DNA of 64,000 nucleotides from Ruditapes philippinarum (lineage: Eukaryota), in assembly GCF_026571515.1 (NCBI RefSeq), contig NW_026852469.1, positions 124,001 through 188,000 of the forward strand, given 5' to 3'. The translations under genes and the position numbers were made by a program. The notes under the pieces are model-generated. The model saw only the letters and a program-made list of their open reading frames with translations. It was not told the origin of the DNA and ran no database searches. Shown here in pieces: positions 5,498 through 64,000 of the stretch; position 1 is the stretch's first letter; the number at the start of each line of letters is the position of its first letter.

Positions 5498-5904
5498 TTA
5501 GAATGAGAAATCCGTTGAACATATTCCAGTATCAGGGTCACTTTCCCAAAGAGCGCCCCCATTTGTTCTTGCAGCTTTAACTGAAACCTTATCCAATGCT
5601 TTCAGTAAGGTAGAAGTACTATATGAATGGCATGTTGACCATCTACTTGTATCATCGAGTCCTAGGCCTCTAAAAATTGCTTGGTCATTGGCAACGATCT
5701 CAAAATACAAATATTTGTCCGATGTGATGCAAAGTTGAAGATTAAACATGTAAAGTCCTCCAACAGGTGCCGTGAATATTCCAGTTGTTTTGTCATACGC
5801 TGATCCATTGTTTGACATAATTGATGAAAATACCAGTGTTTCTTTTATAGCAGGTGACTTATTCTTGATTCCTCTTGCACTAAAGTGAATTATTTCTGCT
5901 TTAT
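5498..5904 (-). CDS. C1q-domain gene copy 1, exon 2 (globular C1q domain; C-terminal 1-nt frameshift)
   Basis: Acceptor ttttcacag| at 5905-5906, phase 1 matching exon 1. Motifs IHFSAR, LVFSSIMSNNGSAYDKTTGIFTAPVGGLYMF, DKVSV. The last strand WNMFNGFLI is present only out of frame. Confidence 0.9.
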
Positions 5905-7937
5905 CTGTGAAAATACAAAAAATAACAGAAATTATAAAGATTAATATCAACCAAAGTGCAATAAAATGAAATGATAAGTTCCATACACACTACACCAATA
6001 ATGATAATAATAAAATCTTAAAGCGCTTTTAAAACACTCAAAACACTTTGGTTATTTGTGTTGAATGTTAGATATAAAGCACAATTAAATATCATTGTCA
6101 CATGATCTTTCTCTTTCATGTGCTGAAGCCGTCTAAGAAAATTCTTGTGCATGATTTTGAATTTGTTATAATCATTTAAATGGGCATAACTCTATCACAA
6201 ATGGATTGCAGGTAAACTCAATCTAAATCTATGTTTGTATAAAATTTAATGCCAAAACAATCACAATAATTACAACCCTTAAACCTGTAAAATATGTAAT
6301 TCATCAAAAGTTATTCTGCAGAAACCACTAATATTTTTTTGCTGAAAATATGCGTATAATGGACATAACTCTATCAATAACGAGTTGATTGAACGTAATC
6401 AAATACTTCAACAATTATAACAAATATTCTCACATGCACAGGAAGAAAACGGTGAAAACGATTTAAAACTTCCCAAAATAAAACATTTTTCACCTCTCCC
6501 TCCGACAAAGCCTTTTAAGACAAGGGCGTATATCGGCTTATTTTGAGTATACGCTTTGATCATCAAGCTTGGTTTATTTCATTTTAAAACATTTTCTTTT
6601 TTTTTTTTGTTAGTTTTCTTTTGTTTCATCATAACTTAACAAGAGATATAATCAAGGAAAATATTGCTTTAAATGATGATGGTCATATTTATTACATTCC
6701 TTATACGTTTTCAAAGATTTGTTTACATTTAAAACATCTAAAGCCACGTCGTAGAATTATTTTTTATTAGTATTAAGTCCGTGGTTATTATGAATAAATG
6801 CCGAGGACGTTATTTATGCGATATGGAGGCCGTATAAAGTCGCCCTTACTTATGATCAAAGATGTTATTTTTTCCATTTTTTAAGAAAGTTCAGCACAAC
6901 ATTACTGTATGTACATGTTACGTGTTTTTTTAGTTTCTTATATTGGACCATTTTCATCTTGGTTGGTTCCAGCATTCCTACTTTAATACTGTATAATCAC
7001 CCTTAGGAATGTTTTCTGCTTTATAAAATTGTCGTTTTACGTTTTGTCTGTGATATACAGGTTCCATCACCTCAAATCCCCACTCAAAATTCCATTTTAT
7101 TTAGTTCTGCCCATGGTTTTCTCGTTTAGGGCAAACGCATTCCTTGAATTGAGGACCACGGAATAGCAATAACATGTAACATTGAAGGTTCCATAATACT
7201 GGCCGTATGAACACATATGCAGATATTTCTTAATTCAAAATTTTACCATTTCAACTGAATATTGCTTAAGCCGGTGCTAGGGGTGTGGACATTAACTTGC
7301 ATTTTACAGTAACCATGAACAGGCTCAATTCAACCGAGCTTGCAACATTTTCAATTTGTCGTTTTTGGCGTTCTTTGGGGTTTCCATTTTATTCTATTTT
7401 AAGTTCGGATCATGTGATTTTTTATGAGAACTTAAACGTAATTTGAGCAAACACAGCTTAATTGACAATTCAAGGGAAAAATACATCAGTTTTATTGTGA
7501 GAAACTAGATTCTACCGTATTGAACTTTGTAAGTTTTAATATACATAAAGGAAGACACTCTGTAAGTTACTGTACTGTAGAGTACAGATACAGGAATTTC
7601 AATAGAGAAACATCAAGTAGATCTTATTAAAAATAGTGCTACTATCAAGTGTATTAAAGACATTTATACACGTGGAAAGTGATAATCTGGAATGAATAAT
7701 GCACTCGGACCGACTATCACCATCCGGTCCTACCTTTCCGTATATAAACCTCTTATTTAACACCGCTGTGACCAAAATTGATTCTTACACAATCGTACAA
7801 AATTATTGTGTGACGAAAAAGTAGTCTGATTAACTACTGTACTACCTGAACGATTACTATTAATATGAAAACTACTTGAACAGATATAAATCGTTTCCGT
7901 ATTCAAAAACACAAAAACAGTACATGTCAAACTTTAC

Positions 7938-8220
7938 CTTTCTCAGGTTTTAAGTCCTTCAAAATATTTTCAATATCCACGATCCTTGATGTTATTTGTT
8001 TAAGCATTTTGGTAGATTCAGTTCGTTCAGTTGTTATATAAGCCAATGTGTCGTGAAGGTTTCCTTTAGTTTCATCAACGTCCGCCTTAAGTTTGTCCAC
8101 TAAAATCTCCACCGTAATCATCTTTCTTAATGTTTGCTCCTCATAGTGAAATTTTGAACATGATTGTTCTGCTGATAACAAAGCCAAAGAGCAGAAAAAT
8201 ATTCCTAGGGATCGGAACAT
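7938..8220 (-). CDS. C1q-domain gene copy 1, exon 1 (signal peptide + coiled coil)
   Basis: ATG at 8220, hydrophobic leader MFRSLGIFFCSLALLSA, CSKFHYEEQTL motif, heptad-like helix, donor G|gtaaag. 283 nt (phase 1), same length as the paralogous exon at 24196-24478. Confidence 0.9.
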
Positions 8221-8292
8221 CGTCACTTACTGGGATGTTTATTATTATCTCCCTGTAAAGTTTATGAAAGATCTGTACTTTAGGTAGCGATG

Positions 8293-8964: not shown

Positions 8965-10550
8965 ATGTAAAAACATACAGAAGTAATACATTGTGAGTTC
9001 CTTATGAAAGTCTTACATCTTAGAACAAGTACACCCCTGTATATGCTATATGCAGAATCTGGCAGATACCCAATTAATATTACAATTAAATGCAGGATGA
9101 TTGGTTTCTGGAACAGATTAATATTAGGAAACAGAAATAAAATTGCATACAAAATATATCAATATATGATTAATTGCCAAGATTTTGAATTTAAATGGCT
9201 CAGCTACATTAAAAGTATACTTTCAAATACTGGTAGGAATGACTTATGGCTAAATCAGACAAATATTCAGAGCAAAACGATCAAATGTGTTATTAAACAG
9301 GTACTTTTAGATCAGAATTATCAAATGTGGCATGAAACTCTACAAAATTCAAGCAAAGGGAGAAATTATTCTATATATAAAGAAAATATATGCCTTGAAA
9401 ATTATTTATTGACTCTTGATAAGGGAGATTTTATAAATATGATTAAATTTAGAACAGGAAACCATTTTTTCCCGATAGAAATCGGCAGATGGGAAGGTAC
9501 AGATTTTTCTGAGAGAAAATGTTCTCTTTGTAGTTTAAATGACATAGGAGATGAACTCCATTATCTGTTGAAATGCACCTTTTTTGATGACCACAGAAAA
9601 AAATATATTAACAGATATTATTATAGGAATCCAAACATTATAAAATTTAAAATGTTATTAACGAATTCAAGTCCTATGCAATTACAAAAACTTTGTAAAT
9701 TCATTAAATACTATTTGAAACAATATGGAGGTAATGTTTGTAACAAATCATGCAATATAATGTTTGTCAGGGAAAAAAATGCTTATTTATATTTTTCGAA
9801 ATTCTGTCAATTGCCATTATCTGTTCATATTAAGACTTCATGTTTGCTTCACGCTGACTATTGTTGTCATCTTTAATATGCTATATAGAATGTATATTAA
9901 TGCCATAACATGCAAACTGTATAATAACGCAATATATACTAGTAACCCGATTCTACATTGCAAATCAAATTAATGTTCCCAACCACTTCCCTACCTGTCT
10001 AAACATGGCATAAGTCTAAAAACGCAACACAAATTAATAAATTAATATCATAAGAAAAAAGGTTAAACAATTAGTTTTGCGCAAAATACCTTTTTTCTGT
10101 TGACAAGTACGCACATTAATCCGTGTTTGTTTTTTGTTTGTACTAGTAAATAAAGACATACTTTCTAGAAGCGCGACACACTTTAACTCTGTCACGATTC
10201 GCACGATCTAATTCAAGGTCAACAAATTTGAACCAATCAGATAAGACTGAAATAGACACGAATGCCAATACTCCTACAACTGTCTATAGTCTGTTTTAAG
10301 ATTCATACCATTTTCACACCTGTATAAATATACGACTTCACCGTTTGGAATAATTCTCGCATCGCCCCCCCCCCCACTCCCCTCATCAATGTACTTATTA
10401 TAATAAATGAATATTTAAATTTACTGAAAATATCGCTTTATAATACTGTTTGCATACACCACATGTCATGTGTTTTGAAATTTGCATTTACTCTGAAATC
10501 TCATATGTCTTTTGATTTGAGATAATAATGTATTGTTCTGTTCTGTTCTG
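8965..10550 (+). mobile_element. 5'-truncated non-LTR retrotransposon (RTE/RTEX-like 3' end)
   Basis: ORF 9004-9876 with STPLYMLYAESGRYP, FRTGNHFFPIEIGRW and a CxxC...H...C knuckle (CSLCSLNDIGDELHYLLKC); ends in a (GTTCT)3 tail. The flanks are nearly contiguous in the paralogous region at ~25655-25690 (empty site). Confidence 0.8.
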
Positions 10551-12438: not shown

Positions 12439-12851
12439 CTATTTTAGAATGATAAATCCGTTAAACATATTCCAGGCGTCGGAGTCACTTTCCCAAAGAG
12501 CGTTCCCGTTTGTACTGGCAGCTTTAACTGAAACCTTATCCAATGCTTTAAGTATGGTAGAAGTACTATATGAATGGCATAATGACCATTTACTTGTATC
12601 ATCGAGTCCTAGGCCTTTGAAAATTGCTTGGTCATTGGCAACGATCTCAAAATACAAATATTTGTCCCGATTGATGCAAAGTTGAAGATTAAACATGTAA
12701 AGTCCACCAACAGGTGCCGTGAATATTCCGGTTGTTTTGTCATACGCCGATCCATGGTTTGACATAATTGATGAAAACACCAGTGTTTCTTTTGCGGCAG
12801 GTGACGCATTCTTGATTCCTCTCGCACTAAAGTGAATTATTTCCGCTGTTT
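12439..12851 (-). CDS. C1q-domain gene copy 2, exon 2 (intact globular C1q domain)
   Basis: Acceptor ttttaacag| at 12852-12853, phase 1. Reads ETAEIIHFSARG...GSAYDKTTGIFTAPVGGLYMF...WNMFNGFIILK*. Spliced protein is 231 aa. Confidence 0.92.
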
Positions 12852-13031
12852 CTGTTAAAATACAAAAAGACAGAAACTATGCAGATTAATATTGACCAGA
12901 TTGCAATTAAATAAAATGATAATTTCCATAATCAAAGCGCTGAAAGCACTGCTGGGGCGCATTATGTTGATTGTATAGTGGTCTATTGTTACAAGCAGAT
13001 GCCATTCCTACTTTCAAAGCAGAAAACAATA

Positions 13032-19479: not shown

Positions 19480-20022
19480 TCAAGTATGATATAAAATGTA
19501 TAAAGGTTTATGGTCAGAATAATAAGATTCTAGTGTACCAAATTTTTGCACTTTATTCAAAGGCAAGCCGCAATTAATATGATCAAGACAGCTGCCATAA
19601 TCAGTAGTTACTGAATCAATGAGTTGAACTGAACTGAGTACTTCCTGTATAATTTTAGCAACTGGTTTGTTCTCAGTATAATCATAATTGAAATCTCCCA
19701 TTAAAATAAGCTTTTTTAAAATTCCAGTCACTTTAAACTCTTTTGAAACAATTTCCAAAATATTGAATAGAAACCCTGAAAAATATGCAACAGTAGCACA
19801 CCTTGGAGGACAATAAACAAATCCAATAACTATGTCTTGTAAACACAGTAAAGCACATTCTATGTCAGAATGAGTAAAACAAGTAAAATGACAGACATTA
19901 ATATTTTCCTAGTAATAAATTGCTATCCCATGTGAGGCCTGACCCAAATTGGAAGACAATACACAAAAACCATCTATGCTGTACTGCTCAGATAAAGGAC
20001 CAGTTAATCTAGTTTCTACTTG
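19480..20022 (-). pseudogene. AP-endonuclease domain remnant of the Helentron
   Basis: One reading frame with VETRL, HGIAIY, VYCPP, GDFN, TTDYGSCLDH and ESYYSDHKP motifs, and a single in-frame TAG at 19909-19911. Confidence 0.8.
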
Positions 20023-24116: not shown

Positions 24117-24195
24117 ATTTATCATAGTGATAATTTTCATATCACAAGATGAAAATAAATTTTTAATAATGAATAAAATACATGTCCGACATTAC

Positions 24196-24478
24196 CTTTT
24201 TCATCCTTTAAGTCCTTCAGAATATTTTCAATATCCACAATCCTTGAGGTAACTTGTCCAAGCTTTTCGGCAGATTCGGTGCATTCAGTTGTTATGTTAG
24301 CCAATGTGTCATGAACGTTTCCTTTTGTTTCTTCAATGTCCGCCTTCAGTTTGTCCACTAAAATCTCGACCATTATCATCTTTCTTAATGTTTGCTCTTC
24401 ATAATGAAATTTTGAACAAGATGGTTCTGCTGATAACAAAGCAGAAGAGCACAGAAATATTACTAGATATCGGAACAT
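24196..24478 (-). CDS. C1q-domain gene copy 2, exon 1 (signal peptide + coiled coil)
   Basis: ATG at 24478, MFRYLVIFLCSSALLSA-EPSCSKFHYEEQTL, donor G|gtaatg, 283 nt, phase 1. About 77/94 aa identical to copy 1. Confidence 0.9.
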
Positions 24479-24547
24479 CGTATCTTACAGGGCTTTGTTA
24501 TCCTTACTTTCTGTAAATATTACTAAAACATTTTGCGGAGGAAGAGA

Positions 24548-27293: not shown

Positions 27294-27500
27294 TGTCCGC
27301 AAGAAAACTACATATATTTACGCTATTATCTACGTTACGTCTTACCGCGCTATTTGACGTCAACGTCACTTCTGACGTATGTTGTTATTGTTTATATATT
27401 ACTGTTGAGATTTTGTACACATTGAATCGAGAGTCAATACAGATCGAACCTACACAACGCCTTTGTATTATTACTTCCAATATACGAAACCACTTCCACA
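27294..27500 (+). repeat. 5' LTR
   Basis: TGTCCG...TCCACA; 206/207 identical to the 3' LTR. Confidence 0.97.
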
Positions 27501-27531
27501 TTGGTGCCGTTTGTATAGCTATTGACTAATC

Positions 27532-30500
27532 ATGAATCTACAGAAGCTTATTTCAACAAGAGAAGGTCATCGCAGAATTGTTCAGAGAAAATTAGCAGCA
27601 ATTGATCAAAATGAGGAAATGTCATCTCTAGAAATTTCATCACTCATAGATTATCTGACAGAGAAAGCTACGATAATTAAAGGATTGAATGAAAAAATCA
27701 TGTGACGATATTGAAACAGAAATCGTGGAAAGTGAAGAATATTCATACGATTTGGATCTGAGGATTCAAAAATTAAGCGAGACTTACCGGAAGCATACTC
27801 AAGACTTAACAAACAATAGTTCCGTTGATCAAGAAAAAAACCCTAAGGAACCTAGACATACGAGTTCGAGTACATTTGCGCAACATAAACTCCCAAAACT
27901 TACCATACCTAATTTTGACGGAGATCTTACCAACTGGCAGACTTTCTGGGACTCTTATGAGTCATCTATTCATCTGAATTCTACGTTATCGGACGTTCAG
28001 AAGTTCAACTTCTTGCGATCTCTGGTTCAAGGTATAGCAGCACGGTGTATAGGCGGGTTTCCGTTGACGAATGCGAACTATTCAAAGGCAGTGAGTCTTC
28101 TAAGGGAGCGCTTCGGACAACCACAGACGATAATTTATAGATACATGCAGTCCTTGCTTGAACTTCCAAGACCTAGCAACAATGTAGTAAGTTTACAATG
28201 TTTTTATGATAAAATGGAAACTTTTATCAGAGGTTTAGAATCACTTGGGCAGTCACAGGAATCTTACGGTAGCTTATTAATACCAATAATTTTAGAGAAG
28301 TTACCAGGCATAATGAAGCAAAATATGGCACGTGAACATCGCAGTGTAAACTGGGAATTACAAGAGTAAAGGTCAGCTATCTGTAAAGAAATTTCTTTCA
28401 CGGAAGCACGTATTTCTACTAGTGATATTATCAACCGTGAACCTGATGTTCATATTCCCACAGCATCATTCTTTACTGGAACTAGACAAAGTACAAATGA
28501 ATGTAAAAATGAACGTAAGAAAGACGTCAATTTTCGGGAAACTTTCAAGAAAGTTTGTCCTTTTTGTAGTGATGAACATTCCCCAAACGAGTGCAGAAAG
28601 GTTACATCTTATGAATCGCGTATAGACATTGTAAAAAGAGAACATTTGTGTTTAACTGTTTACGGAAACATCAAGTATCGGCATGTCGTTCCACAAATAG
28701 ATGTCGTCACTGTCAGCGCAAACATCATTCAAGTATCTGTGACAAATCTGCTAAGCAATCAAACTCAAAGCTGAATCCCAATGCCGCAAGTTTCACCATA
28801 CCAGCTACTTCCGGTGTTTCAAATCAACCCGAGGCTGCAATTCTACACTCTACCACTGAGCTAAGACATGACGTTCTTCTGAAGACAGCCGTTGCACAGA
28901 TATGTTTTAACAGCGTTTCATTGGAAACAAATATTCTTTTTGATGAGGGAGCTCAGCGTTCTTTTATCACTGAAGAATTAGCGGAGAAACTACAAATTAA
29001 GCAGACCGGAAGTGAAGTCGTTCATTTAGCATCGTTTGGTGATACTAGCCAAAGAGTACGACACATGAGGTAATGTTGTATACAACTTATTACAGACGAC
29101 AATGAGAAAATATGCATTGATGTTTTGATTGTTCCAAAGATAGCCGTACCGCTGCGAAATATTAATCAGAATATATTAGCCCTCCCATACTTGCATGGTT
29201 TAAAGCTAGCTCATCCAGTTACAAATGACAGAGATTTTGAGATATCGTTACTGATTGGAGCAGATTCATATTGGAAAATTGTTCAAGATAAGGTTGTCCG
29301 AGGGAATGGTCCAACAGCGGTGCAGTCGAGACTTGGATATCTTTTATCCGGTCCACTTCCGGTTTCCAACTTTCCAGCGTCAATACAACACCAACTTCCG
29401 GTTTCTACACTTACAGCGTCCACATCCCAACAGCCTCCAGTTCCCGCACAAGAAACGTCCACCCATTTGTTGAACATTCTAACGTCCTCCCCAGATTCCT
29501 TTGATATTGAGAGATTTTGGAAGCTTGAGTCTCTTGGTATATCTCAAGAAGAAGAGAACCCTGAGGCTACATACCTAGAAAACTACCAGCGTGATTCAAT
29601 CACCTACAATAACGGACGTTACACAGCCAAACTGCCTTGGAAAGAAGATCACGCTATCTTACCAACGAATTATGATATCACCAAGAAACGCACTGAAAAC
29701 GTAATCAGACGTTTACGTCAAGATCCTAGTAGTCTACAAACGTATGGAGAAATAATCAATGATCAAGAAAAGAGAGGTTTTATTGAGAAGGTAGACGAAG
29801 GTATCACACCCCAACACAAGATACATTACATTCCCCACCACGGCGTCAAGAAAGACTCAGTCACAACACCGATACGCATCGTATATGATTGTAGTTGTCA
29901 TCAGTCACGTAACCAACCAAGCTTAAATGACTGTTTGAAGTCTACGCCACCAGAGCTAAACGATCTCACTCAAATTCTTATCCGTTTTCGGTTACACAGA
30001 TATGCTGTTACTACCGACATAGAGAAGGCTTTTCTACAAATACAGCTTGCAGAAGAAGACAGAGATGTTACAAGATTTCTTTGGTTAAGTGACTCCAAAA
30101 ATCCCGACAGTACTTTGATCACCTACAGGTTTAAAGCAGTTCTGTTTGGTGCAACATGTTCCCCGTTCATTCTTAATGCAACGATTTTAAAACATCTAGC
30201 AAGTAACAGTGATGTATGGGTCAGTAGTATTTTAAGAAGAGATTTGTACGTGGACAACGTTTTGTCAAGCTTTGAAGATGGAAACCAGGCACTTGCTTAC
30301 TTCCATGATTCACGAAAGCTTATGTCGTCTGCAAACTTTAACTTACGCTCTTGGAATTAAAATAGCCAGAAACTACGAAATTTAGCCTTAAACTACGACT
30401 TACAAGATAGAGATAAAATCACAAAGATACTTGGAATGCGATGGAATACAGAAACAGATATGTTGACTTTCCAACAAACCTATATACCAGTCACAGATAC

Positions 30501-32832
30501 TACAACGAAACGAGAAATCTTGCGACATACGTCAAAAATGTTCGATCCTCTTGGTCTACTTAGTCGGTTACGGTACGTGCTAAGATTATATTGCAACAAA
30601 TTTGGGAAGTTCGATTGGGATACTCCACTTCCAGCAAATATACAAAAGAGGTGGAAAAATCTTGCTACAGATTTGACTACACTATCCACCACTCAATACA
30701 GACGTTGCTATTTTCCCGGAGCAGACGAGAAAATTAGACAAGCAGACGACCATTCACATACTACCTTACACGTGTTTGTAGATGCTAGTCAGTCATCATA
30801 TGGAGCTGCAGCTTACCTTTCCAATGGTCAAAATACATCACTAATTATGGCAAAGAATCGTGTGGCACCTCTTAAAAAACTTACGTTACCCCGACTAGAA
30901 TTAATGGCAGCTGTAATAGGTGCTCGACTTTTAAGCCACATAAAGAAGACATTAAAACACACAAATTTCTATCTTTGGTCAGACAGTCAGATTGTTTTAC
31001 ATTGGTTAGAAACAGCTAAAACTTTACCCCGCTTCGTGAGGAACAGAGTCGAAGAAATACAAAAACTGACCGGGGACCGGAAATGGAAATACTGTCCAAC
31101 CAACTTTAACCCAGCAGATTTACTTACCCGTGGTATAACAGCGATCCAGTTAGTCAATAACAGCCTTTGGCAATATGGACCATCCTGGATCAACAATCAA
31201 TCAAAATGACCTACATGGAATCCAAAAGATGCAACAGTACTTACAGCTTCCTTATATGACACTTCCGGTCATGAAACCAACACTTCCAGTCCAGACCCTA
31301 GCACTATCAGTACTGTTACCACAACTAGCGAGCAAGGCATTCATAGAGTTATTGATATTGACAGATTCGGTTCATACCAGAAACTATTACGTGTTACTGC
31401 ATATGTGATGAGATTCATACAAAACAGCAAAAGTTCTAAAAAGAGACTCGAACCCCTGTCCCCCAATGAATTACTTCAAGCTGAGAAATTATGGCTAATA
31501 GACTGTCAGTCCAGTACTTATCCAGCAGAGATCAGCAACATGAGATCAAGTAAATCCCGCTCACAGCTTGTCAAACAACTTCGACTATTTTTAGATAACG
31601 ATGGCGGAATCCGTTGCGGAGGTCGAATTCACAATGCCCCATTGGTCGAGAGTTCGAAATTCCCTTACCTGTTACCATCAAAACATAAGTTGACCCGTTT
31701 GATTGTACTTCATTACCATCAAAAAATACTACATGCTGGAGTAAATTCTACAATTACTTATATACGACAGAAGTTTTGGATACCTGCTATTCGTCAATGT
31801 GTAAAGACAATTCTTCGAAAATGTGTCATTTGCCGGAAAGTCGTTGGCCAAGCATACTCACCCCCAGATCCTCCTCCGTTTCCCAGATATCGAGTACAAG
31901 ATACCGTTCCATTTACAGTGACAGGTGTAGACTTTACAGGCGCACTTTATGTCAGAACTAAAGACGGAATTGAAACAAAAGCATATATTTGTTTATTTAC
32001 GTGTGCCTCCACACGAGCGGTGCACTTAGAACTCGTGCCAGATTTGACAGAAGACTCCTTTCTACAAGCATTTAGAAGATTCAGCAGCCGAAAATCTTTA
32101 CCACATGTCATGATCTCTGATAATGCTTCAACATTTATGGCTGCATCCAACCATATAACACGTTTGTTCGAGTCCCGACATGTACATGACACACTTTCAA
32201 GTCATGGTACCACGTGGAAATTCATACCTAAGCGTGCACCTTGGTATGGAGGGTGGTGGGAAAGGTTAATTGGACTCACAAAGACAGCTCTCAAGAAAAC
32301 CCTAGGCCGTACCTACGTTACATACGACTCTTTGCAGACTGTCATAACCGAGATAGAAGCCGTTATGAATGACCGTCCGTTAACATATGTCTCGTCCGGC
32401 AATCGCCCAGAACCAGAACCATTAACACCAGCCCATCTTTTATATGGTAGACGCATTACCACATTACCGTATCATGACACTGTTGATGAAACGGACCTAA
32501 GTTTGAGCCTTGGGAAACAACAGAACATTACACAACGTGCCAGAGTTCAGATTAAAATCATAGAAGACTTCCGTAAGAGATGGAGACATGATTACCTAAC
32601 TGCTCTTCGTGAACAACATCGTACATCCGGAAAAAATAAACAATCCATATCAGTTGGTGACGTAGTACAAGTTCACGATGACATTCCACGTGCACAATGG
32701 AAATTGGCGGTCGTTGAACAACTCGTGCACGGGAGAGATGGACTCGTTCGGTCGGCGAAAATTAGAACAGACAGTGGTGTTACCAATAGACCGATAGTGA
32801 AACTTTTTCCTTTGGAAGTTACAGAACTTTAA
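27532..32832 (+). pseudogene. Disrupted BEL/Pao gag-pol polyprotein
   Basis: Gag (KLPKLTIPNFDGD), Cys/His knuckles, protease LFDEGAQRSF, RT DIEKAFLQ and YVDN, RNase H FVDAS, integrase HHCC plus VDFTG/SDNA/WERL. Stops at 28367, 29071, 30358 and 31207; frameshifts near 27703, 28652, 30564 and 30608. Confidence 0.93.
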
Positions 32833-33042
32833 CTATGAAATAATATTCATGCATAGTGACACTTCAAAAGACTGTATTAATAACGATAATAACCATAATA
32901 TTTTGACAAATGAATGCTTAGAGACGATACTTACTTATTTAAATTACTCTTTGATATTGCTGATAAGTTATTTCTGAACATACTGCTTAAATATTCTTAA
33001 ATCTTTGTGTAATAAGTGTTAAACATTTCGCGGCCCCCAGTA

Positions 33043-33249
33043 TGTCCGCAAGAAAACTACATATATTTACGCTATTATCTACGTTACGTCTTACCGCGCT
33101 ATTTGACGTCAACGTCACTTCTGACGTATGTTGTTATTGTTTATATATTACTGTTGAGATTTTGTACACATTGAATCGAGAGTCAATACAAATCGAACCT
33201 ACACAACGCCTTTGTATTATTACTTCCAATATACGAAACCACTTCCACA
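33043..33249 (+). repeat. 3' LTR
   Basis: Direct repeat of 27294-27500 with a single mismatch (27442 G vs 33191 A). Confidence 0.97.
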
Positions 33250-34975: not shown

Positions 34976-35397
34976 CTAATTCTGTCGAACCAAAAATCCA
35001 TGAAACATATTCCAGTGGTCTGTATTGGTACAAATACATTTCTTAGATCCAGAATGATACTTCACCCAAACCTTTGCTCCGGCCTCCAAGATTGCGGCAG
35101 TAGAGAACGAATCTCCAGTGCTCCATTTATTATAATCATCAACACCCACACTCTTTAATATCGGCTCATCATCAACAACAATTTCAAAGTATATATATTG
35201 CTCATCTGCTATACAAAGTTGAAGAGTAAAAATATAAAGTCCTGCAACAGGTGCTGTGAACATTCCGGACTGGTGGTCATATGCAGATCCAATATTCGTC
35301 AACACCGTTTGAAATATGATCACCTCTCCTGACGACGGAGATGTGTTCTTTACGTTTCTAGCTCTAAACAACACTTCATTTGTTGTACCGTCAGAAT
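34976..35397 (-). CDS. C1q-domain gene copy 3, terminal C1q exon (5' exon not found)
   Basis: Acceptor ttcttgtag|, phase 1 as in copies 1 and 2. Reads VLFRAR...TNIGSAYDHQSGMFTAPVAGLYIF...WNMFHGFLVRQN*. Confidence 0.85.
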
Positions 35398-38300
35398 CTA
35401 CAAGAATATAGATAGAACAATAATTTACATCTTCCTTTAAAAAATATCTAAATGAAAAATAATGAATAAATGTATTTAAAATAAATATGTAATTTTATCA
35501 TTAAAATGACAATTTTCAATTCAACTGACTTTTGTTGTCTCTTTTCCCCTCAAGTAATTATAACCATCTGAGCTTACGGGGGTGGCATTTATTTGAAGAA
35601 TAAATAGCTTTATGAATCTTGCAGTCAGGCATCTCGGTAGGGATAATTTCCGTGTCTACATATTTAGCGTTGTCTGACCATAGTATAATTAGTGTTGTTT
35701 GACCATAGTGTAAAATTCACAATGTATATATATTACATTGCACTAATTTATGCAACAAAAACTAAAAGTAAAGAAGTTTTCCCACCCTCCTACCCAATTT
35801 TTAGTATAATTTTGCCTTTTACAATGTTACATTGTTATGCCAATCTGCAAGGTACATTCATTATTGGTGAATTTGTTTAGATTAGTTTTCATAAGTTTGT
35901 TTCATTGATACTATATATTTAACATGGCGGTTCTTTCCCCCAACTTTGTCTTTCAAGGAAAACATTTTACAGTTGAATTCTTTCTAGTCACATTATATAT
36001 GTTTTATGCAATATTATATTTTCACTTTACCCGTCATTTTATCATTAAAATGACACTTTTCAATTCAACTGACTTTTGTTGTTTCTTTTCCCCTGAAGTC
36101 AAATATAACCATCTGAGCTTACGGAGATGGATTCATAAATGTATTTAAAATAAATATGTATTATGTCCTTAAAGTTTGACGAAATAAATTTATTTTGAGC
36201 CTATGTTTCAATATTCATATGCTTATAAAAAAGAGCATTTTGTTTCTTGAGTAGGATTTCGTGTATATCAATTTTCTTTTGTAGATTATTGACTTTGCCA
36301 TTAATTCGATTCACGGGCCCTAGAGAAATGAAATAAATATTTAACAATTTTTGTTTTTCGTGTAAATTGTCTTCTTCGTTTAATTGTGTAACAAGTCTAT
36401 GCATTTTTATAATGATTAGAAAAACAAATATAATTAATTTGTGATTCCTTTTAATTTTGTATGTTGTATCAGTTGATACTTCTTTCGCGTATTTTATTCA
36501 TCAGGCGGGAAACTCCTCTGAGCAGTGTCTACGGTTTACAAGTTATAGACACTTTTCTAAACTAAAGCTTGGATATTTGAAAAGCTCTTTTTCAGAAATG
36601 AGGAAATTCTAAATGATCTTTAATATCATCATCTTTAAGAAAGAAGATATCATATGGAATATTGCTAAGAAACAAAGATCAGCATTCAGCTAACAAAACA
36701 CATAAGCAAAATGATCGTTTCTGTTCAAAATGTTTGAAATATGTATAGATAAAAATGTTACCCTTCGTATTTTTAAACACTTTTTTGACCATTTCCTACT
36801 TAAATATCATTTACGCTTAACAACAATGACAGGCTATTTTTAAAGTTTTTTTTCCAGAAGTATTTTGGTTGATCCTTTGGTGAAATATTAAACTCTACTA
36901 CAGTGTAGTTTTGACTTAGTTAGCCTTTCAAAATATCAGGTAGCATTTTTTGTTATAAAGTTCAGAATTATGTAGCCGATAAATACCTAAATTAGTTATA
37001 TTATTTAGATTAAAAAATTTTTAATCCGAAAGGGATCCGAAAAAGATAGATAATTATTGTTAGAAAAAAAGAAGAAAAAAGTTGACTCTTTGGGTTTTAA
37101 ATCTACGACCAACTGTTTCAACGCAGTTGTAGTATTTCTTGCCTTTTTCATATTATTCAAACATAAGGTAATGCATTTGAGTGTTATGCCTTAAAAACAG
37201 TGTGTTATGTGTAAGTAAAAAATAAATTAAAAGATAGCCAACCCTATATCTATATTTCTGAACTTTCCTGAATGCTTTGTTTTGTTCGAGTTCAATTGTT
37301 CTCTGTTTTTTTGATCAACAGAATCGCTCCGTCTGCCTTCTTCTATTTTGAGATATTAAGTTACTATATGCCAGTTGCAGATTGTCTTCGTTACTTTTCT
37401 AACATTCCTCTCTGAAAGGAACTTATTAAAAACGTCTAAGAAATTTTCTTTTATACGTTCGTGTTTATCGTAAAGTTTCGTTTAATTATAAACATTCATT
37501 TTAAAGTAAAGTAAGCTGATAAAAACTTTGTATACACACGTGCTTGCCGTTTTCGTTTTCCTTTGAAGTTTTAATTCTAAAATCTTAACCACATGTTCAA
37601 AGCAAACACCTGCTTTAGATCAAAGCAAACCAGTTTCACTCTAATCCGATATTCTATGGGGTTTGCTAGAAATACATCTTTTGTTGAGAAGAAGAACACA
37701 ATTAACACGTTCGTAATTTTATAAAGATATTTGATAATAAATTTTACAGTGGAGATATGGAAATGAAAATACACATCATCAAAACTTCATTTTGAAATAT
37801 ATTATAAATCATTATAACAATAATGACGTTTCTCATTGTTAGATATTTAATTGTATGTTATCAATGATTTTGATTTTGAATTCCAGTATATAAAAAAATG
37901 TACGAATAATTCCTGCTAAGTATATATAGATATTACAGCAGTTTATACTATGTAGGAAACATTTATACATTTAATTGTCCTTGTTTTGGTGTTATATTAA
38001 CCACTCCGTAGGCAATTTCATTCTGCAATCGTTATATCACGATCAACTAAAACCGTCTGTTTTCGGTTGGACTTCCTGTAAAATTTACAATGAAGAACTG
38101 AATATATGTTAACATTTCACTGGTCAAAATTTCAATCTGAAATCTCGGAATCTGATTGGCCATTGTAAAATTAGAAGAATAACATGAAGAATTAATTAAT
38201 ATTCTAAACTATAATTTGGCATAACCCTTAATTTTAAGAACCGAAATACTATAAACTTTGGAACAATCAATGATATGATTACGAGTCCTTCAAATAAAAC

Positions 38301-47093: not shown

Positions 47094-48162
47094 ATTAGTC
47101 CAGCTTCCATTTTTGGAACCGTCCTTTATCAATTTAAGGGATATCAAGATGAAAAATGTTAGTTAGCCGACAGTATAAAGCATGTTCACACGACACGAAT
47201 GTGAAGGCTGACCTGGCTCTATACTGAAATTTGTAAAGGCTAATCACTTCAGGTCCCATCAGGTGAGTGGTTAATTATTGTAGAACATTTGAACTATTTT
47301 ATGTCATTCACTGATAGCTATAATCTGAAAACGTTGGATATTTATTTATTCTTGTTTAACATATCTATGAATGACAGTTTTGACATATATATTCACATTC
47401 TGAAATTGAATTGCTTAGAATATAAAACCGAAAGTCGCGACAGTAGTTATCGCAAAGACTTACTTAATGGATGTTCAAATATTTGAGCATAAATAGCACT
47501 TTCAGCACGATTAAAACATTTTTTATTTAGAAACCTTTATCATTACCAGGTAAAAAATAAATATGATTGTTTGACATTAAATAGACCTTTAACTATTGTC
47601 CTGTAATATATTTTGAAGAACAAATAGTAATCTGACATTTATTGGAAATAAGTCAACATAGACAAATGTCAATGTCGAGAAAGTGGTGTTAATGGACATT
47701 TCCAACTAATGATCACTTTGCGCAGCTTTTCAATTGTTTCTGTTGCATTCTTTCTACTCTGAATGTTTCTCCTATTAAACTGTGAAAACATCTGACATAT
47801 TTTGCAATATTTTGGCTTATATCTGTAAAAGTAAGATCACCTGTAAAAGTAAGATCACCATATTATCTATAAAAAATATCCTTTAGCGCGTAGATTCTTA
47901 TCATAAATATTGAAAGCGATTTTTATTGTTTCTTCCAGCGTTCCACAGAAACAAAACGTTCATATTCAAGAACATTATAAAAATACGTGATTAAATATAA
48001 TGTACTGCCAATGTAAATTTAACTGAAATCTGAATGTAGCTGACCGATCAAAAATACAAACAGAAATGAACAGTGAACAACTAATCATTTTAAATGTGAA
48101 GCTTTGCTCATATGAATCAAACAGACCACTTTTTATTTTCAGACTTGCAAATACATGTACAA

Positions 48163-49464
48163 ATGCTTAATCAAACTATACCTGAAGTAAAAGATCATAA
48201 ACACTTAGGATTATTTTTGTCTCACAATTGCCTGTGGCATTCACATATAGAATATATTAATGAAAAAGCATGGAAACGGGTGAACATAATGAGAAAACTG
48301 AAATTCATGTTTGACCGTAAATCTCTTGAAATTATTTATATATCGTTTATCCGACCAATCCTTAATATGCGGATGTGGTATGGGGAAGCGCATTTCAGTA
48401 TGAACTTGACCTCTTAGATAATATACAAAATGAATGTGCTAGAATAGTGTCTGGTGCAACAAGACTAGTTTCAATTGAAAACTTAAATAATAAAGTAAAT
48501 TGGGAAACATTAAAACAAAGACGTTATAAACATAGATTAACATTATTCTATAAAATCAAACATGGCATTGCACCAGAATACTTGTCAGAACCAATACCGT
48601 ATCAAACAAACACTCGTTATAACCTTAGAAATTCAAACGACACTATTGGTATTTCAGCAAGGACATCTTTATACTTTAATTCTTTTTTCCCATCTTCAAT
48701 TCGTGAATGGAACAACTTGCCCCTTAACATAAGGAATTTACCAACCCTTTCAATGTTTAAAAATTATCTATCACGTGATAAGAAAACTACACCAAAATAT
48801 TTTTATTTTGGTGATAGAAAACTTCAAATTATTCACACCAGGTTACGCACAAAATGTAGCTCCCTAAATTATCATTTATATCACCATCGCCATTATGTGA
48901 GTGTGGTCAAATGGAAACTAACTTTCATTACTTCTTTGAATGCAATCGCTTTCGTACATGTAGAGAAAAATTATTGGGAATTCTAAATAATTTCGATATT
49001 ACCCTCAACACCCTACTTTTTGGCAACCCGGACATCTCAGATACTGATAATGCCAATATCTTTAAACATGTTCATACTTTTATCTCAGAGTCAAAGCGAT
49101 TTCTCTGAACTTAAAGTGAAACAGTGAAGCAATCTTTCTTTTCTCTTTCTTTCTTTTTTCCTAACATTGTATTATTTGTTTTCCTTTTTTCTTTTTCGTT
49201 ATTATAATTTCTAATTCTTATCCCGATGATTACTTATAAATATAACGTTTACTTGGTCACAAATATTTACATTCCACTTTTTTGATAATTGTACAAAATA
49301 TTATAAAATCGACTCATTATAAAGTTACACTAAAAGGAGAAGAATTTTATAAGACTTAGTCTTTCGTTCTCATCCTTTTCTTTGAATATATTATATACTT
49401 GTATTCTGATTGTATTGTATTATGTATATCATGTAAATATTCGGGAAATAAATATGTTTAAACT
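48163..49464 (+). mobile_element. 5'-truncated CR1/L2-group LINE with a 13-bp TSD
   Basis: RT C-terminus (HKHLG, YISFIRPI, IQNECARIVSG, SFFPSSIREWN) with frameshifts; AATAAATATGTTTAAACT end; TSD AATACATGTACAA at 48150-48162 and 49465-49477. Confidence 0.88.
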
Positions 49465-59734: not shown

Positions 59735-60638
59735 ACTGACTTGTTGTGTCGTACAAAGTGACAGTATAAAAACAAATATCAAATAAAAAGTGATCCATCG
59801 GAAGCATTTAAAACAGCAAAATTACATGAAAATTGCAAACTCGATTCGATTGAGTCTGTACATGACGGGTAATGAAAAAGTGCAACATCCCTCAAGCCCC
59901 CTATCACCGGCTAGAACGGTACTCAATTATCTACACTTAAAAGTGGTAGACTCAATTATTCCGAAGGACCAGAGAAATATAACAACACTGAAGTGAAGTA
60001 ATGGGTAACTTTTCACGGCTGCTACACAACACTTATGTGACGCACAAATATCTGGGGGAAAAGGTGATCCACAAGGAGTGTTCGGATGATTGGACAGTTG
60101 AATATGACTTGGACAGTATAAAAAGACGTTCCGTCCCAATCGTTCTATAAATATAAGATGTTCAAGTAACCTGAATAATTTAATGTCGAGGACAAGTGTA
60201 TAATACTGCAAGAGAAAAAATATTTAACACTTTTGAAATAAAAAAGTATATTTCTATTTGTGGTGAAATAAAAGGTGAATGGTATGTGCAAATATTATTG
60301 TCTATTTTATACAAATGTAAAACAATTCGTATACATGCTATAAAGTATAGGCTAAATGAATGTTTTGTAGAACATTTCTATTTTTCATATATGTGGCCTT
60401 GTCTAAATAATATAAAGATATTGATGTTCTATATACATTGTATACATCGAGGTTTCTATGTATCATACATCCATTGGTTCTATATGTTCTATATATAGAA
60501 GTTTCGTTTCTCACTCTTTAATTCTCACACTGAAAGTCAGCATGACAAAATACGCAGGTTACAACGGTACAGATATCTTCATACAAGCTGATCACTGTTA
60601 GAACTGCTCCGATCCCTTTATAATTTATTTTTCTATCT

Positions 60639-60905
60639 TTAAGATGCATCATCAACACATAAATTAACTTCAACCTCGGTATCGGCAACAATTTTAGTAT
60701 TATCCACAACTTCCTCAGTTGGTTCTTCAACAATGTCGGCTTTGGATACTTCTATAACAGTTGGTTCGTCCTCCTCTTCAAGGTGTTTACATAGTTCCAC
60801 TTGAATGAACCCGTATAGAAGTTTGTAATTGTTTTCAGTTGTTTCCGTAAACCTGTCTGATCCGAGAACAAGTCGGATATTTTCTATAAACGGATCATGA
60901 TAGTC
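60639..60905 (-). CDS. Globin-like gene, last exon (G-H helices + acidic tail)
   Basis: Acceptor ttttcag|, phase 0; reads DYHDPFIENIRLVLGSDRFTETTENNYKLLYGFIQVELCKHL then an E/D/V-rich tail to TAA (88 aa). Not in the ORF track. Confidence 0.75.
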   Translation of the reverse strand, partial: DYHDPFIENIRLVLGSDRFTETTENNYKLLYGFIQVELCKHLEEEDEPTVIEVSKADIVEEPTEEVVDNTKIVADTEVEVNLCVDDAS

Positions 60906-62749
60906 CTGAAAATGATAAGATAAAGACTGGTCTATATTCTAGACAGGACAGTATGCAGTGATTAAAAAAACTTATTGTTTGCAAAAAAAATTATCAAGAA
61001 CAGTTAAACTTCTAAATGGCGGTAGTCTTAAGCACCAATTAGAAATTGGATTGCTTTTACAAACTGAAAATAATTTGGGTTTTCTACATGTATAAGATAC
61101 TGGTTAACCATACACCATCAATAATATACACTAAATACGAGATATCGTAGATATCTTAAATACGCATAGTCTTTGATACTGCAAAATTCTCTATGATTTT
61201 CTTCCGCAAATTTAAAATTTGTTCCCAACATTTTCATGACAAATAAGTAAATTCTGTAATTTGGCTTAAATGTCACGAATTTATTTAACCTTTGTAAATA
61301 GCATCAAATAGCAAATGCTTTTTCCTCACAGCAGTAAAAAAGAACAGAAAGATAAGTAGTTTTAAATGGAAACATTGAAAATTATATTGTTGACATGCAA
61401 AGGTAAGTGCTTTTTTTCTGGTGATTTCCATCACATGTCAATGTCACGGTCAATGTCATTAGGTCGTCTGCAGAGAGTTTTATCGTTTGTTTTGTAAGAG
61501 AAATATGAAACTTTTACCATTACAATCAGTCTATATGTGAAAATCATATAAAGTAGAAAGACGAAACGGAATTGGATAATTCCCTGGTGTGTTATAACTT
61601 TCTGAAATGGCAAATGAATGTACTGTATGGTATGAAACTAATAGAATGTTAAGTGACTGTCTGCGTGTCAAGATTGTTTTCATGACAGAGGTAACTAATT
61701 TTGTTTTCTTCAAAGATTTCATCAGACAAAATATGTCCAAAAACTATTATAAACTGCGCAAAATTGAATTACGGGATAAAACTGACATTTGACAGAGGTC
61801 TATCACAAAATGAATAAATAACATCAATTGAATAAATAGTTTGTTAAAACGTAGATCTAGCATGAATGCCAATACAATTCGTTTCAATGAAGTGGAACAA
61901 TGTGCTGTATTTAAAGAGTATAGTAATCAAATAAAAAATGGTTTTGATTTTTACATTAAATGCGCGTTATCAAAAAATGAAATACTGCTTGCCAAGTCAA
62001 ACACGTAATCAAAAGCATTGAATACACGTTTTATAAATGGTTTTTTAACAAGTTTAAGCTAACTTGACCTGTATAAAGATGTACAAATATTTAAATTTAT
62101 CTGAAGCGTAAGGTTCGGCACCATTCAATTATATATGCATATAAACATTTATGTTATTTAAATACAAATTATCTCAGTTTTAGGGAAAGGTACACATGTC
62201 GTCCGAGTTAAACTTAAGTGCGCTGACAAGAATTAAGGAAACATTCTAAAGTGTAATTACATTGTTATAATAACTGAGATCAATCTACAAACGTGTAACG
62301 TCTTTTTTTAAGGAAATCGCTGACATCAGAATATGTTTTAAGTTAACATCACTAATGACGTACTCCTGTGTTTACAAACATTTTGTATTAAAACAAACAG
62401 TCTTGTCATCTATTGGATCTTGCCTGCCTATTACATTTCTTTAAAACAATATACTTAAGACAATTAATACTACATATTTATTTTTTTGTATAGACTATTT
62501 CTTTTAAAAATGGTTTAATATTGTTTATTATTCCTTTTTAATACGTTTCAAATACAATGTATCTCCATCATTTTTCAATAACTTACATGCCAAGTTACAA
62601 ATCTTTCATAGAGACGCAACATAAGTATCTTAAAGTAAGGAAGTTTTTCATAATCACAAAGAAGCAGAACATTTGAGAAATAGGCTTATGAATGCAAGGC
62701 ATTATTAGATATAAAGGTCAAAGTTAAGTGCCACCATAGAAACAATTAC

Positions 62750-62975
62750 CTTGACCATTTTATGTGAAAATTGTGTGGCGGCAGCACCGTATTGTATCTC
62801 TTGTATAGCTTTGTCGACGTTTTCTAGATTAGCGATGACCCCGTCAAATATACAATATATATCCATTGACTTGTCTTCAAAATCTTGATTCTTCCTCAAT
62901 TCTTCGAGCTCTCCATCTTGTATTCCACTAATACTCGAGTACTTTGCTTTGTAATGAGGATGGCTGTTTAAAAAT
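62750..62975 (-). CDS. Globin-like gene, central exon (B12-G6)
   Basis: ttttttccag| ... |gtaatt; 226 nt, phase 2 to phase 0 (B12.2/G7.0 pattern); FLNSHPHYKAKY...LRKNQDFEDKSMDIYCIFDGVIANLENVD. Confidence 0.75.
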
Positions 62976-63227
62976 CTGGAAAAAACATATTTGTTCACTT
63001 ATAAATTTCTACATTTCGAAAATTTTGACAGCGATAAAAGATGAACTAAGTGTTGACTTTACGCAAATAAAAGCAGTGCAACAGTAACTTTCAAGTGTTT
63101 TTAATTTTGTAGAGTACAAAGGATTAAATGAATTTGGCCATATTTCGTTATACAATAAAGATAAGTTAATTGTTATTCAAAATAATTTACGTTTATAATG
63201 ACCGAACAGAAAATATATCACAGTTAC

Positions 63228-63404
63228 NNNNNNNNNNNNNNNNNNNNNNNNNNNNNNNNNNNNNNNNNNNNNNNNNNNNNNNNNNNNNNNNNNNNNNNNN
63301 NNNNNNNNNNNNNNNNNNNNNNNNNNNNNNNNNNNNNNNNNNNNNNNNNNNNNNNNNNNNNNNNNNNNNNNNNNNNNNNNNNNNNNNNNNNNNNNNNNNN
63401 NNNN
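63228..63404. other. Assembly gap
   Basis: Run of N. Confidence 1.
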
Positions 63405-64000
63405 TTTCATTTACGTATAAAATCTATATATCATTATTAGTTATATACATGCATATATTATGATAGCAAATTTATAATGAAACACAATTAATACAAAATA
63501 AACATAATAATATATATGTAGTTATATTATTTGCAGCTTTGAATATGGAACAGTTCATTCATAATTTGAGGGATCTGAAGATACAATGGTTAATCAACAG
63601 GTTATGGGTTAACATAGATTGTTTTGTTTAGTAAAACATTAATAATTCAATTTTAACTTTTTATGTAGTGTTTAGATATTCATTAAGATCGTTTTTTGCA
63701 AATATACCAATCATTATGATATTCGTCAATTTGAGGTAGTTTTCATTTAGAAAATTTTATAAATTACACAAATCTCTCCTAAATGTATCTCAAAGAATTG
63801 AATTAAATTATTCATTGATTACAATAGATCATATCTTAATTTTCTCCATTAGAGGAACACATTCAATACAATACAATACAATACCATAATAATCTAAACA
63901 ATCTCTTAACATATACCATGATGCATGTACATTTATATACAAGACTTAATTTCTAAGGCAATAGTTTGCAAAAATAGATCATACCAAACAAATACTTATA

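Follow-up and report, generated by a model that had tools for sequence, protein, structure and literature searches.

The proximal histidine at position F8 is described as a hallmark of globin conservation (PMC7475203), and a globin gene without it raises the question of what its product can still do. Such a gene lies toward the end of a 64,000-nt stretch of the Ruditapes philippinarum contig NW_026852469.1, which we call the window. The first-pass annotation had read two exons as an intact globin-fold gene lacking His F8, with a heme-free or differently ligated product. Here, we ask whether this gene is intact and a globin, whether the loss is shared among bivalves, and which role would fit it.

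The features of the gene are collected in Table 1; the helix position names follow the myoglobin convention and are applied by alignment. Joined, exons 2 and 3 give 163 codons plus a stop, with no internal stops, and exon 2 is bounded by a polypyrimidine-AG acceptor in phase 2 and a GTAATT donor in phase 0. In two public runs, X1 (depth 90.7) and X4 (17.2), the Logan contigs lack the 1844-nt intron, with an exact GT..AG joint. Because of this intron-less joint we call the gene spliced, none of the runs listed as containing the gene being recorded as RNA and X1 and X4 themselves being only guessed to be so; the two open, cleanly spliced exons of the annotation are thereby confirmed, junction included. 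No splice joint was seen in the 4-6% sampled from each of the raw-read runs X21 and X23; in these samples, X21 reached a depth of about 1-4 over exon 3 and zero over the core of exon 2, and X23 had zero depth over exon 3. In alignment register, the exon edges fall at B12.2 and G7.0, as in animal globin genes and as first proposed. Exon 1, which has 81 codons in the Mercenaria orthologue, was not found among the called bases of the window by tblastn with that orthologue, in agreement with its earlier placement in the gap or beyond the window. Contig 14 of X4 carries about 506 extra upstream bases, which were placed nowhere on 59800-64000.

Table 1. Features of the globin gene, with positions counted from the first base of the window.
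Feature	Position	Strand	Basis
Coding exon 2: 226 nt, phase 2/0, helices B12 to G6	62750..62975	-	Covered by contigs X4:14 and X1:7
Coding exon 3: G7 to H, acidic tail, stop (TAA), AG acceptor	60639..60905	-	
Intron 2: 1844 nt, GT..AG, globin position G7.0	60906..62749	-	Joint in X1/X4 contigs and splice sites
Probable 3' UTR of uncertain extent (its ends are not visible from contigs)	60185..60638	-	Contig cover in X1 and X4
Intron 1 (B12.2), into N gap 63228-63404 or past window end	62976..64000	-	
Acidic C-terminal tail	60642..60779	-	Low pLDDT in Mercenaria orthologue model
CD1 codon: Tyr	62939..62941	-	
E7 codon: Lys	62870..62872	-	
F/FG deletion site (4 residues): in-register F8 codon Thr (62774-62776), then Gln, FG5 Phe	62768..62776	-	
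His of SHK motif: position G2, in 5/21 bivalve rows	62762..62764	-	

The acidic tail occurs in venerid/myid-type members and is missing from oysters, scallops, mussels and unionids. Its end (60642-60690, minus strand) holds a short conserved motif with a Cys, seen only in the venerid/myid-type members (P0003-P0008, P0011, P0173). Just downstream of the gene, a dispersed repeat at 59800-60040 is covered to very high depth, with many loose ends, in each of the four runs.

Neither exon by itself matches Pfam Globin, so we base the assignment as a globin on orthologues and structure. Over exon 2, identity to Mercenaria mercenaria LOC128547740 is 85%, and the AlphaFold model of this orthologue (core pLDDT about 90-97) predicts a 3-over-3 helical globin fold for the product. 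The closest structure is the tardigrade hexacoordinate globin Kumaglobin (5ZIQ; VIA Z 20.1, rmsd 1.9, 151 aligned), and the model scores Z 16-17 against myoglobin, neuroglobin and cytoglobin. Kumaglobin is also the best Foldseek match (5ZM9, E 8e-6) and the best sequence match in the profile search (E 2e-17), and the ESM Atlas returned generic globin clusters at 0.90-0.92. The annotated globin fold is thus upheld by way of the orthologue and its Foldseek match, and not by Pfam on single exons. Kumaglobin itself differs from the bivalve gene in being a heme protein of solved structure that has both His F8 and a full FG loop; in our trees it falls outside the subfamily. Against PF00042, the Mercenaria orthologue (14.2 bits) and a second member, P0004 (18.9), both score below the curated cut-off of 22; at E<=0.01, 36 of the 43 subfamily members match Pfam Globin. 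Weak Pfam matches to IFN-gamma, Rsa3 and Sds3 were under the cut-off and were taken as chance.

Three protein searches, one profile search and cluster look-ups yielded 20 full-length close relatives, a set in which word seeding may favour members that share the N-terminal block; together with the window gene they make up the 21 bivalve rows used below. Eleven of the relatives come from ten species (Mercenaria, Mya, Dreissena, Potamilus, Sinanodonta, Pinctada, Mizuhopecten with two copies, Saccostrea, Ostrea and Mytilus), and the other nine are classed as bivalve from tree position alone. In a tree with the F/FG trait columns removed, the bivalve rows and the window gene form one clade (support 100/99) that follows bivalve phylogeny and takes in venerids, myids, unionids, mussels, oysters and scallops. 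The bivalve split that this clade spans is roughly 450-500 million years old. The enclosing subfamily is supported at 99/92 in a first tree, which carries a warning of few columns, and at 100/96 in a second. It adds Lingula, Owenia, Lineus, Dimorphilus, the chiton Liolophura, Capitella and nematode globins that we label glb-25-type after one Pristionchus record; all of these have a pre-A/A signature in common with the bivalve genes.

The Lingula member (P0019) is assigned to clade 'two', the globin-X-like clade, in the supplement of Song et al. (PMC7771090). Judged by its sequence grouping with this protein, the window gene is a member of a subfamily of acylated globin-X-like (GbXL, clade II) globins (Song et al. 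2020, PMC7771090; Prothmann et al. 2020, PMC7457136). The bivalve genes resemble clade II in their DPR-type pre-A motif, N-terminal acylation signal, single globin domain and B12.2/G7.0 introns. Unlike clade II, they are without His F8 and without a conserved His E7, have an F/FG deletion and carry a basic cluster in place of Cys3. The gene is therefore descended from GbXL, yet it is not a canonical heme-ligating member. Placing the bivalve clade in one group with the canonical His/His scallop GbXL was rejected (p-AU 0.00015), and the latter is a separate paralogue. A clade of bivalves plus chiton did not appear in the tree, and the topology test did not reject it either (p-AU 0.46). Among the relatives from the protein and profile searches, none of the named subfamily members is a gastropod, cephalopod or protobranch, and no match was made between the three scallop GbX accessions of Bao et al. 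and the His-less scallop genes. The two His-less Mizuhopecten copies (P0176 and P0182; LOC110461478 and LOC110461474) are probably neighbours. A metagenome scan for orthologous DNA brought up a single locus; it lies in a bacterial gene, NusB-like by eye, and the match is due to chance.

The register alignment places His F8 in none of the 21 bivalve rows, so that the absence noted for this one gene extends to its orthologues. The 67 comparison rows were hand-picked for full domain cover (20 of roughly 60 nematode matches, and 40 other GbXL from a search with 150 matches), and the spiralian counts omit the long-branched P0067, which was placed among other GbXL. Of these rows, 20/20 nematodes, 5/7 other spiralians (the other two have Tyr) and 38/40 other GbXL carry His F8. 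Within the subfamily, the chiton, brachiopod, annelid, nemertean and nematode members that retain His F8 differ from the bivalve genes also in their full FG segment. Indeed, all bivalve rows have an F/FG deletion, usually of four residues: the distance from F-start to FG5 is 17 residues in 17 rows, 15 in three oysters and 18 in one, versus 20-24 in all 67 comparison rows. The Thr assigned earlier to F8 stands in register, and the accompanying deletion is four residues long where about three had been proposed. Seven different residues occupy the F8 register across the 21 rows (T8 L4 S2 A2 G2 N2 F1).

Alternative alignments lead to the same result. When the 21 bivalve rows are aligned to an HMM built only from non-bivalve rows, the F8 column is a gap in 13 of them and a residue other than His in the other 8, and profile-profile comparison sets the F8 His opposite a gap. 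In a comparison of two structure models, Thr148 is predicted to lie in register with Lingula His123, with an FG link of 3 residues versus 7 in Lingula. Gap placement is ambiguous (Thr in register in the models, a gap in the profile alignments), and there is no His either way. Among 30 fragments, the 22 of bivalve type, several of them near-copies of full rows, have no His in the F8 register and two have Tyr; the other eight have five His, two Tyr and one Lys. Two neighbouring residues had been named as possible axial ligands in this gene. The His of SHK lies at G2. We rejected a phmmer alignment that sets it on the Kumaglobin F8 His, since that alignment takes two gaps that offset each other, disrupts the G7.0 register and concerns a residue with the limited distribution given in Table 1. 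The Tyr of QYG was likewise rejected as a replacement ligand, as it is not conserved among the bivalve rows.

Losses of F8 confined to individual animal globins have been published before and are not new. Examples are Daphnia HbL (Tyr/Val at F8), ostracod Puriana HbL2 and hexapod androglobin, for which an alternative function has been suggested; in the same source, the GbXL sites are conserved (PMC7457136). The Daphnia and ostracod cases are point substitutions in fast-evolving lineage duplicates, whereas the bivalve case is a deletion. Hexapod androglobin is a degenerate domain of a multidomain protein, whereas the bivalve gene is stand-alone, slow, predicted to be membrane-bound and class-wide. 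Globin folds without heme also serve in signalling or ligand sensing in bacterial non-heme globins and their like (RsbR N-domain, Bacillus sporulation sensors, phycocyanin, photoglobin), and the non-heme families named in these sources are bacterial or algal (PMC8717448, PMC7475203, PMC2867796). The same sources report six C. elegans globins that took up no heme in vitro. Against RsbR and phycocyanin, the Mercenaria model scores only Z 8-10 (RsbR about 10), far below the 20.1 for the heme globin. These families are an unrelated lineage with independent loss, and the bivalve gene, nested inside animal GbXL, at most works like RsbR-type globins.

While the proximal site has changed, conservation is concentrated elsewhere in the protein. 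The 20 full-length rows have 38 near-invariant positions; 21 of the 35 positions in residues 35-69 (pre-A/helix A) are the same in at least 19/20 rows, versus 17/127 beyond (Fisher p 9e-8), a contrast that may be inflated by search bias toward that block. The relative rate of the pre-A/A segment (residues 46-69) is 0.37 in bivalves versus 0.65-0.85 in other groups (nematode 0.85, other GbXL 0.72). The reverse holds at F8 (bivalve 1.35 vs nematode 0.16 and other GbXL 0.22), CD1 (1.00 vs 0.20 and 0.22) and G5 (1.44 vs 0.19 and 0.27). By helical angle, Y54, R55, F58, R61, N62, K65 and R69 share one helical face, opposite W64/I60/I67. F58, K65 and R69 are also conserved in ordinary GbXL, and this part of the stripe may only pack the pre-A loop.

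The N-terminus carries a second conserved feature. A MGxxx[S/T] myristoylation motif is matched in 19/20 orthologues (a motif match only; exon 1 of the window gene lies outside the window), the Cys3 palmitoylation site in 0/20, with a basic cluster in its place, and the first 30 residues have a median net charge of +9 (range +6 to +11). The basic cluster also replaces Cys3 in the His-bearing chiton member, and one of the two Mizuhopecten copies has lost it. A myristoyl group plus a basic motif is a likely anchoring mode (Song et al., PMC7771090 section 6), and GLB-26 is a membrane-bound globin predicted to be myristoylated (PMC3520999). Judged from its orthologues, the product is predicted to be myristoylated and located at a membrane.

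Altogether, it is somewhat probable that the product is a heme-free, membrane-anchored adaptor acting through the conserved pre-A/helix-A surface. We infer that heme was lost in the bivalve clade, and the conserved face of helix A suggests a partner-binding role. The ancestral subfamily member would have had both a heme site and a docking face, and its distal His would have been labile already before the bivalve loss. In the bivalve ancestor, the proximal site would then have been deleted and the docking role alone kept, with a separate His/His GbXL paralogue persisting alongside. A myristoylated glycine and the basic cluster would hold the protein to the inner face of the membrane, with a partner docked on the pre-A/helix-A face. 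The deletion is class-wide and ancient in bivalves, and the gene is from a membrane-targeted globin-X-like lineage. A broader proposal, to which we give an even chance, is that a bivalve membrane-bound globin-X-like protein became a heme-free adaptor or lipid sensor, and that the docking surface has been subfamily-wide, nematode glb-25 included, since the protostome ancestor.

It is less likely that the protein is a sensor at the membrane, its emptied pocket taking up a lipid, a fatty acid or a linear tetrapyrrole while the helix-A face relays the signal, as has been proposed for bacterial non-heme globins. The predicted membrane anchor would suit such a sensor, and fatty-acid- and bilin-binding globin folds offer precedent (PMC8717448, PMC7457136). 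Six hydrophobic pocket-lining sites evolve slowly (B10 0.45, B13 0.47, E11 0.56, E15 0.48, G4 0.41, G8 0.32), and pocket-wide relaxation is weak (p 0.044 vs other GbXL, 0.097 vs nematodes, 0.11 vs the rest of the domain); it is these two results that keep ligand sensing alive beside the adaptor. The same hydrophobic residues also build the fold, however, and the polar sites that would give specificity vary freely, namely E7 and the F8 register. In the ligand-binding families that offer the precedent, a conserved polar residue serves at the corresponding site (PMC8717448), and none is seen here.

It is improbable that the protein still holds heme through an unusual axial ligand, be it Tyr, a His on the distal side, water or an exogenous molecule, and works as an enzyme of redox or NO chemistry in the manner of other membrane globins. 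Across the 21 bivalve rows, neither the F helix nor the FG link has a conserved Tyr, His, Cys or Met, and on the distal side E11 is mostly Ile (I15/M3/L2/T1) and E10 mostly acidic or amide (D11 N3 Q3 E2). K/R within F4-FG5 occurs in 6/21 bivalve rows versus 65/67 of the others, so the basic FG residues are lost along with the shortening of the FG link. The annotated Tyr at CD1 and Lys at E7 are both in register. In the bivalve clade CD1 is Phe12/Tyr7/Leu2, versus Phe in 37/40 other GbXL, and Tyr at CD1 also occurs in 20/20 His-bearing nematodes. E7 is His in only 2/21 bivalve rows (the five commonest residues being K6/D3/Y3/R2/H2), versus 32/40 other GbXL. Those two rows would speak for an atypical heme site, as would the Tyr at F8 in two bivalve-type fragments and in four members not of bivalve type, and so would the distal His that the alignment puts at E11 in Kumaglobin, which indicates that ligand positions can shift in the clade. 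The PDB also holds entries for myoglobin H93G variants, which retain heme via an exogenous ligand.

Several heme-site variants stand outside the bivalve clade. In the chiton member, Phe occupies CD1, Gln E7 and His F8. The four members with Tyr for His F8 (P0016, P0018, P0141 and P0154) have a full-length FG loop and are probably separate losses of the proximal His within the same subfamily. The nematode glb-25-type rows (e.g., P0252, P0195, P0032) combine Tyr at E11 and CD1 in 20/20 with His F8 and a hydrophobic E7, making a His/Tyr-ligated heme possible in these globins.

That the gene is a globin in decay or a vestige, preserved by chance or under weak constraint, is very improbable and largely refuted: the sub-threshold Pfam score of the Mercenaria orthologue and the sparse or zero coverage in two raw-read runs are outweighed by full open frames in 20/20 full-length members from the major bivalve lineages, the near-invariant positions, spliced RNA, and the coding differences, where six of the nine listed from the runs are synonymous and two of the remaining three fall in the tail.

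What membrane-bound globin X and X-like proteins do is treated as an open question in the literature (PMC7771090, PMC7457136), and their slow evolution has led to the suspicion of protein-protein interaction (PMC7457136). A class-fixed deletion in a stand-alone, predicted membrane-bound globin appears undescribed: no description of a His-less bivalve globin family was found in the full-text literature, whose coverage leaves out most subscription journals, nor in the available portions of PMC12403961 and PMC8483323. Blood clams have five globin types, and the word histidine is absent from the main text of that report as available (PMC8136487). In the available supplements of PMC7771090, two Capitella entries are the only ones with RLPF, and YRQ is found in Capitella, in Lingula and in a further entry that is unrelated; because the motifs are confined to these entries, that set appears to hold no bivalve member with the N-terminal block (for Pinctada, among the 7 of 14 matches listed). 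A published mollusc survey sought globins with PF00042 at E 1e-5, and the venerid protein, being under the Pfam Globin cut-off, could be missed by a survey of this kind, a likely blind spot. That the heme ligand is deleted, yet the gene, the fold and a near-invariant surface are kept, suggests a heme-independent role and points to the residues that carry it. If true, chiton and Lingula (heme-plus) and bivalves (heme-minus) would make a natural pair for acylated globin function at membranes.

The remainder of the window, which is AT-rich, contains other genes and mobile elements. Frames resembling LINE fragments by eye lie at 8971-9873 (+), 48100-48983 (+) and 19483-19908 (-), and Pfam gave no match on three scanned LINE-like pieces. 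At least three C1q-domain genes are present (5501-5989, 12442-12876 and 34979-35494, minus strand; Pfam C1q, E 1e-12 to 4e-20), with leader-like exons at 7930-8226 and 24140-24484 (-); C1q gene clusters are a typical bivalve expansion. A Bel/Pao-type LTR retrotransposon spans about 27294-33249 (+), with DUF1759, RVT_1, Peptidase_A17 and integrase domains in frames broken by stops and with 22- and 43-nt tandem units at its flanks. Its 207-nt direct repeats are 100% identical, which suggests a recent insertion.
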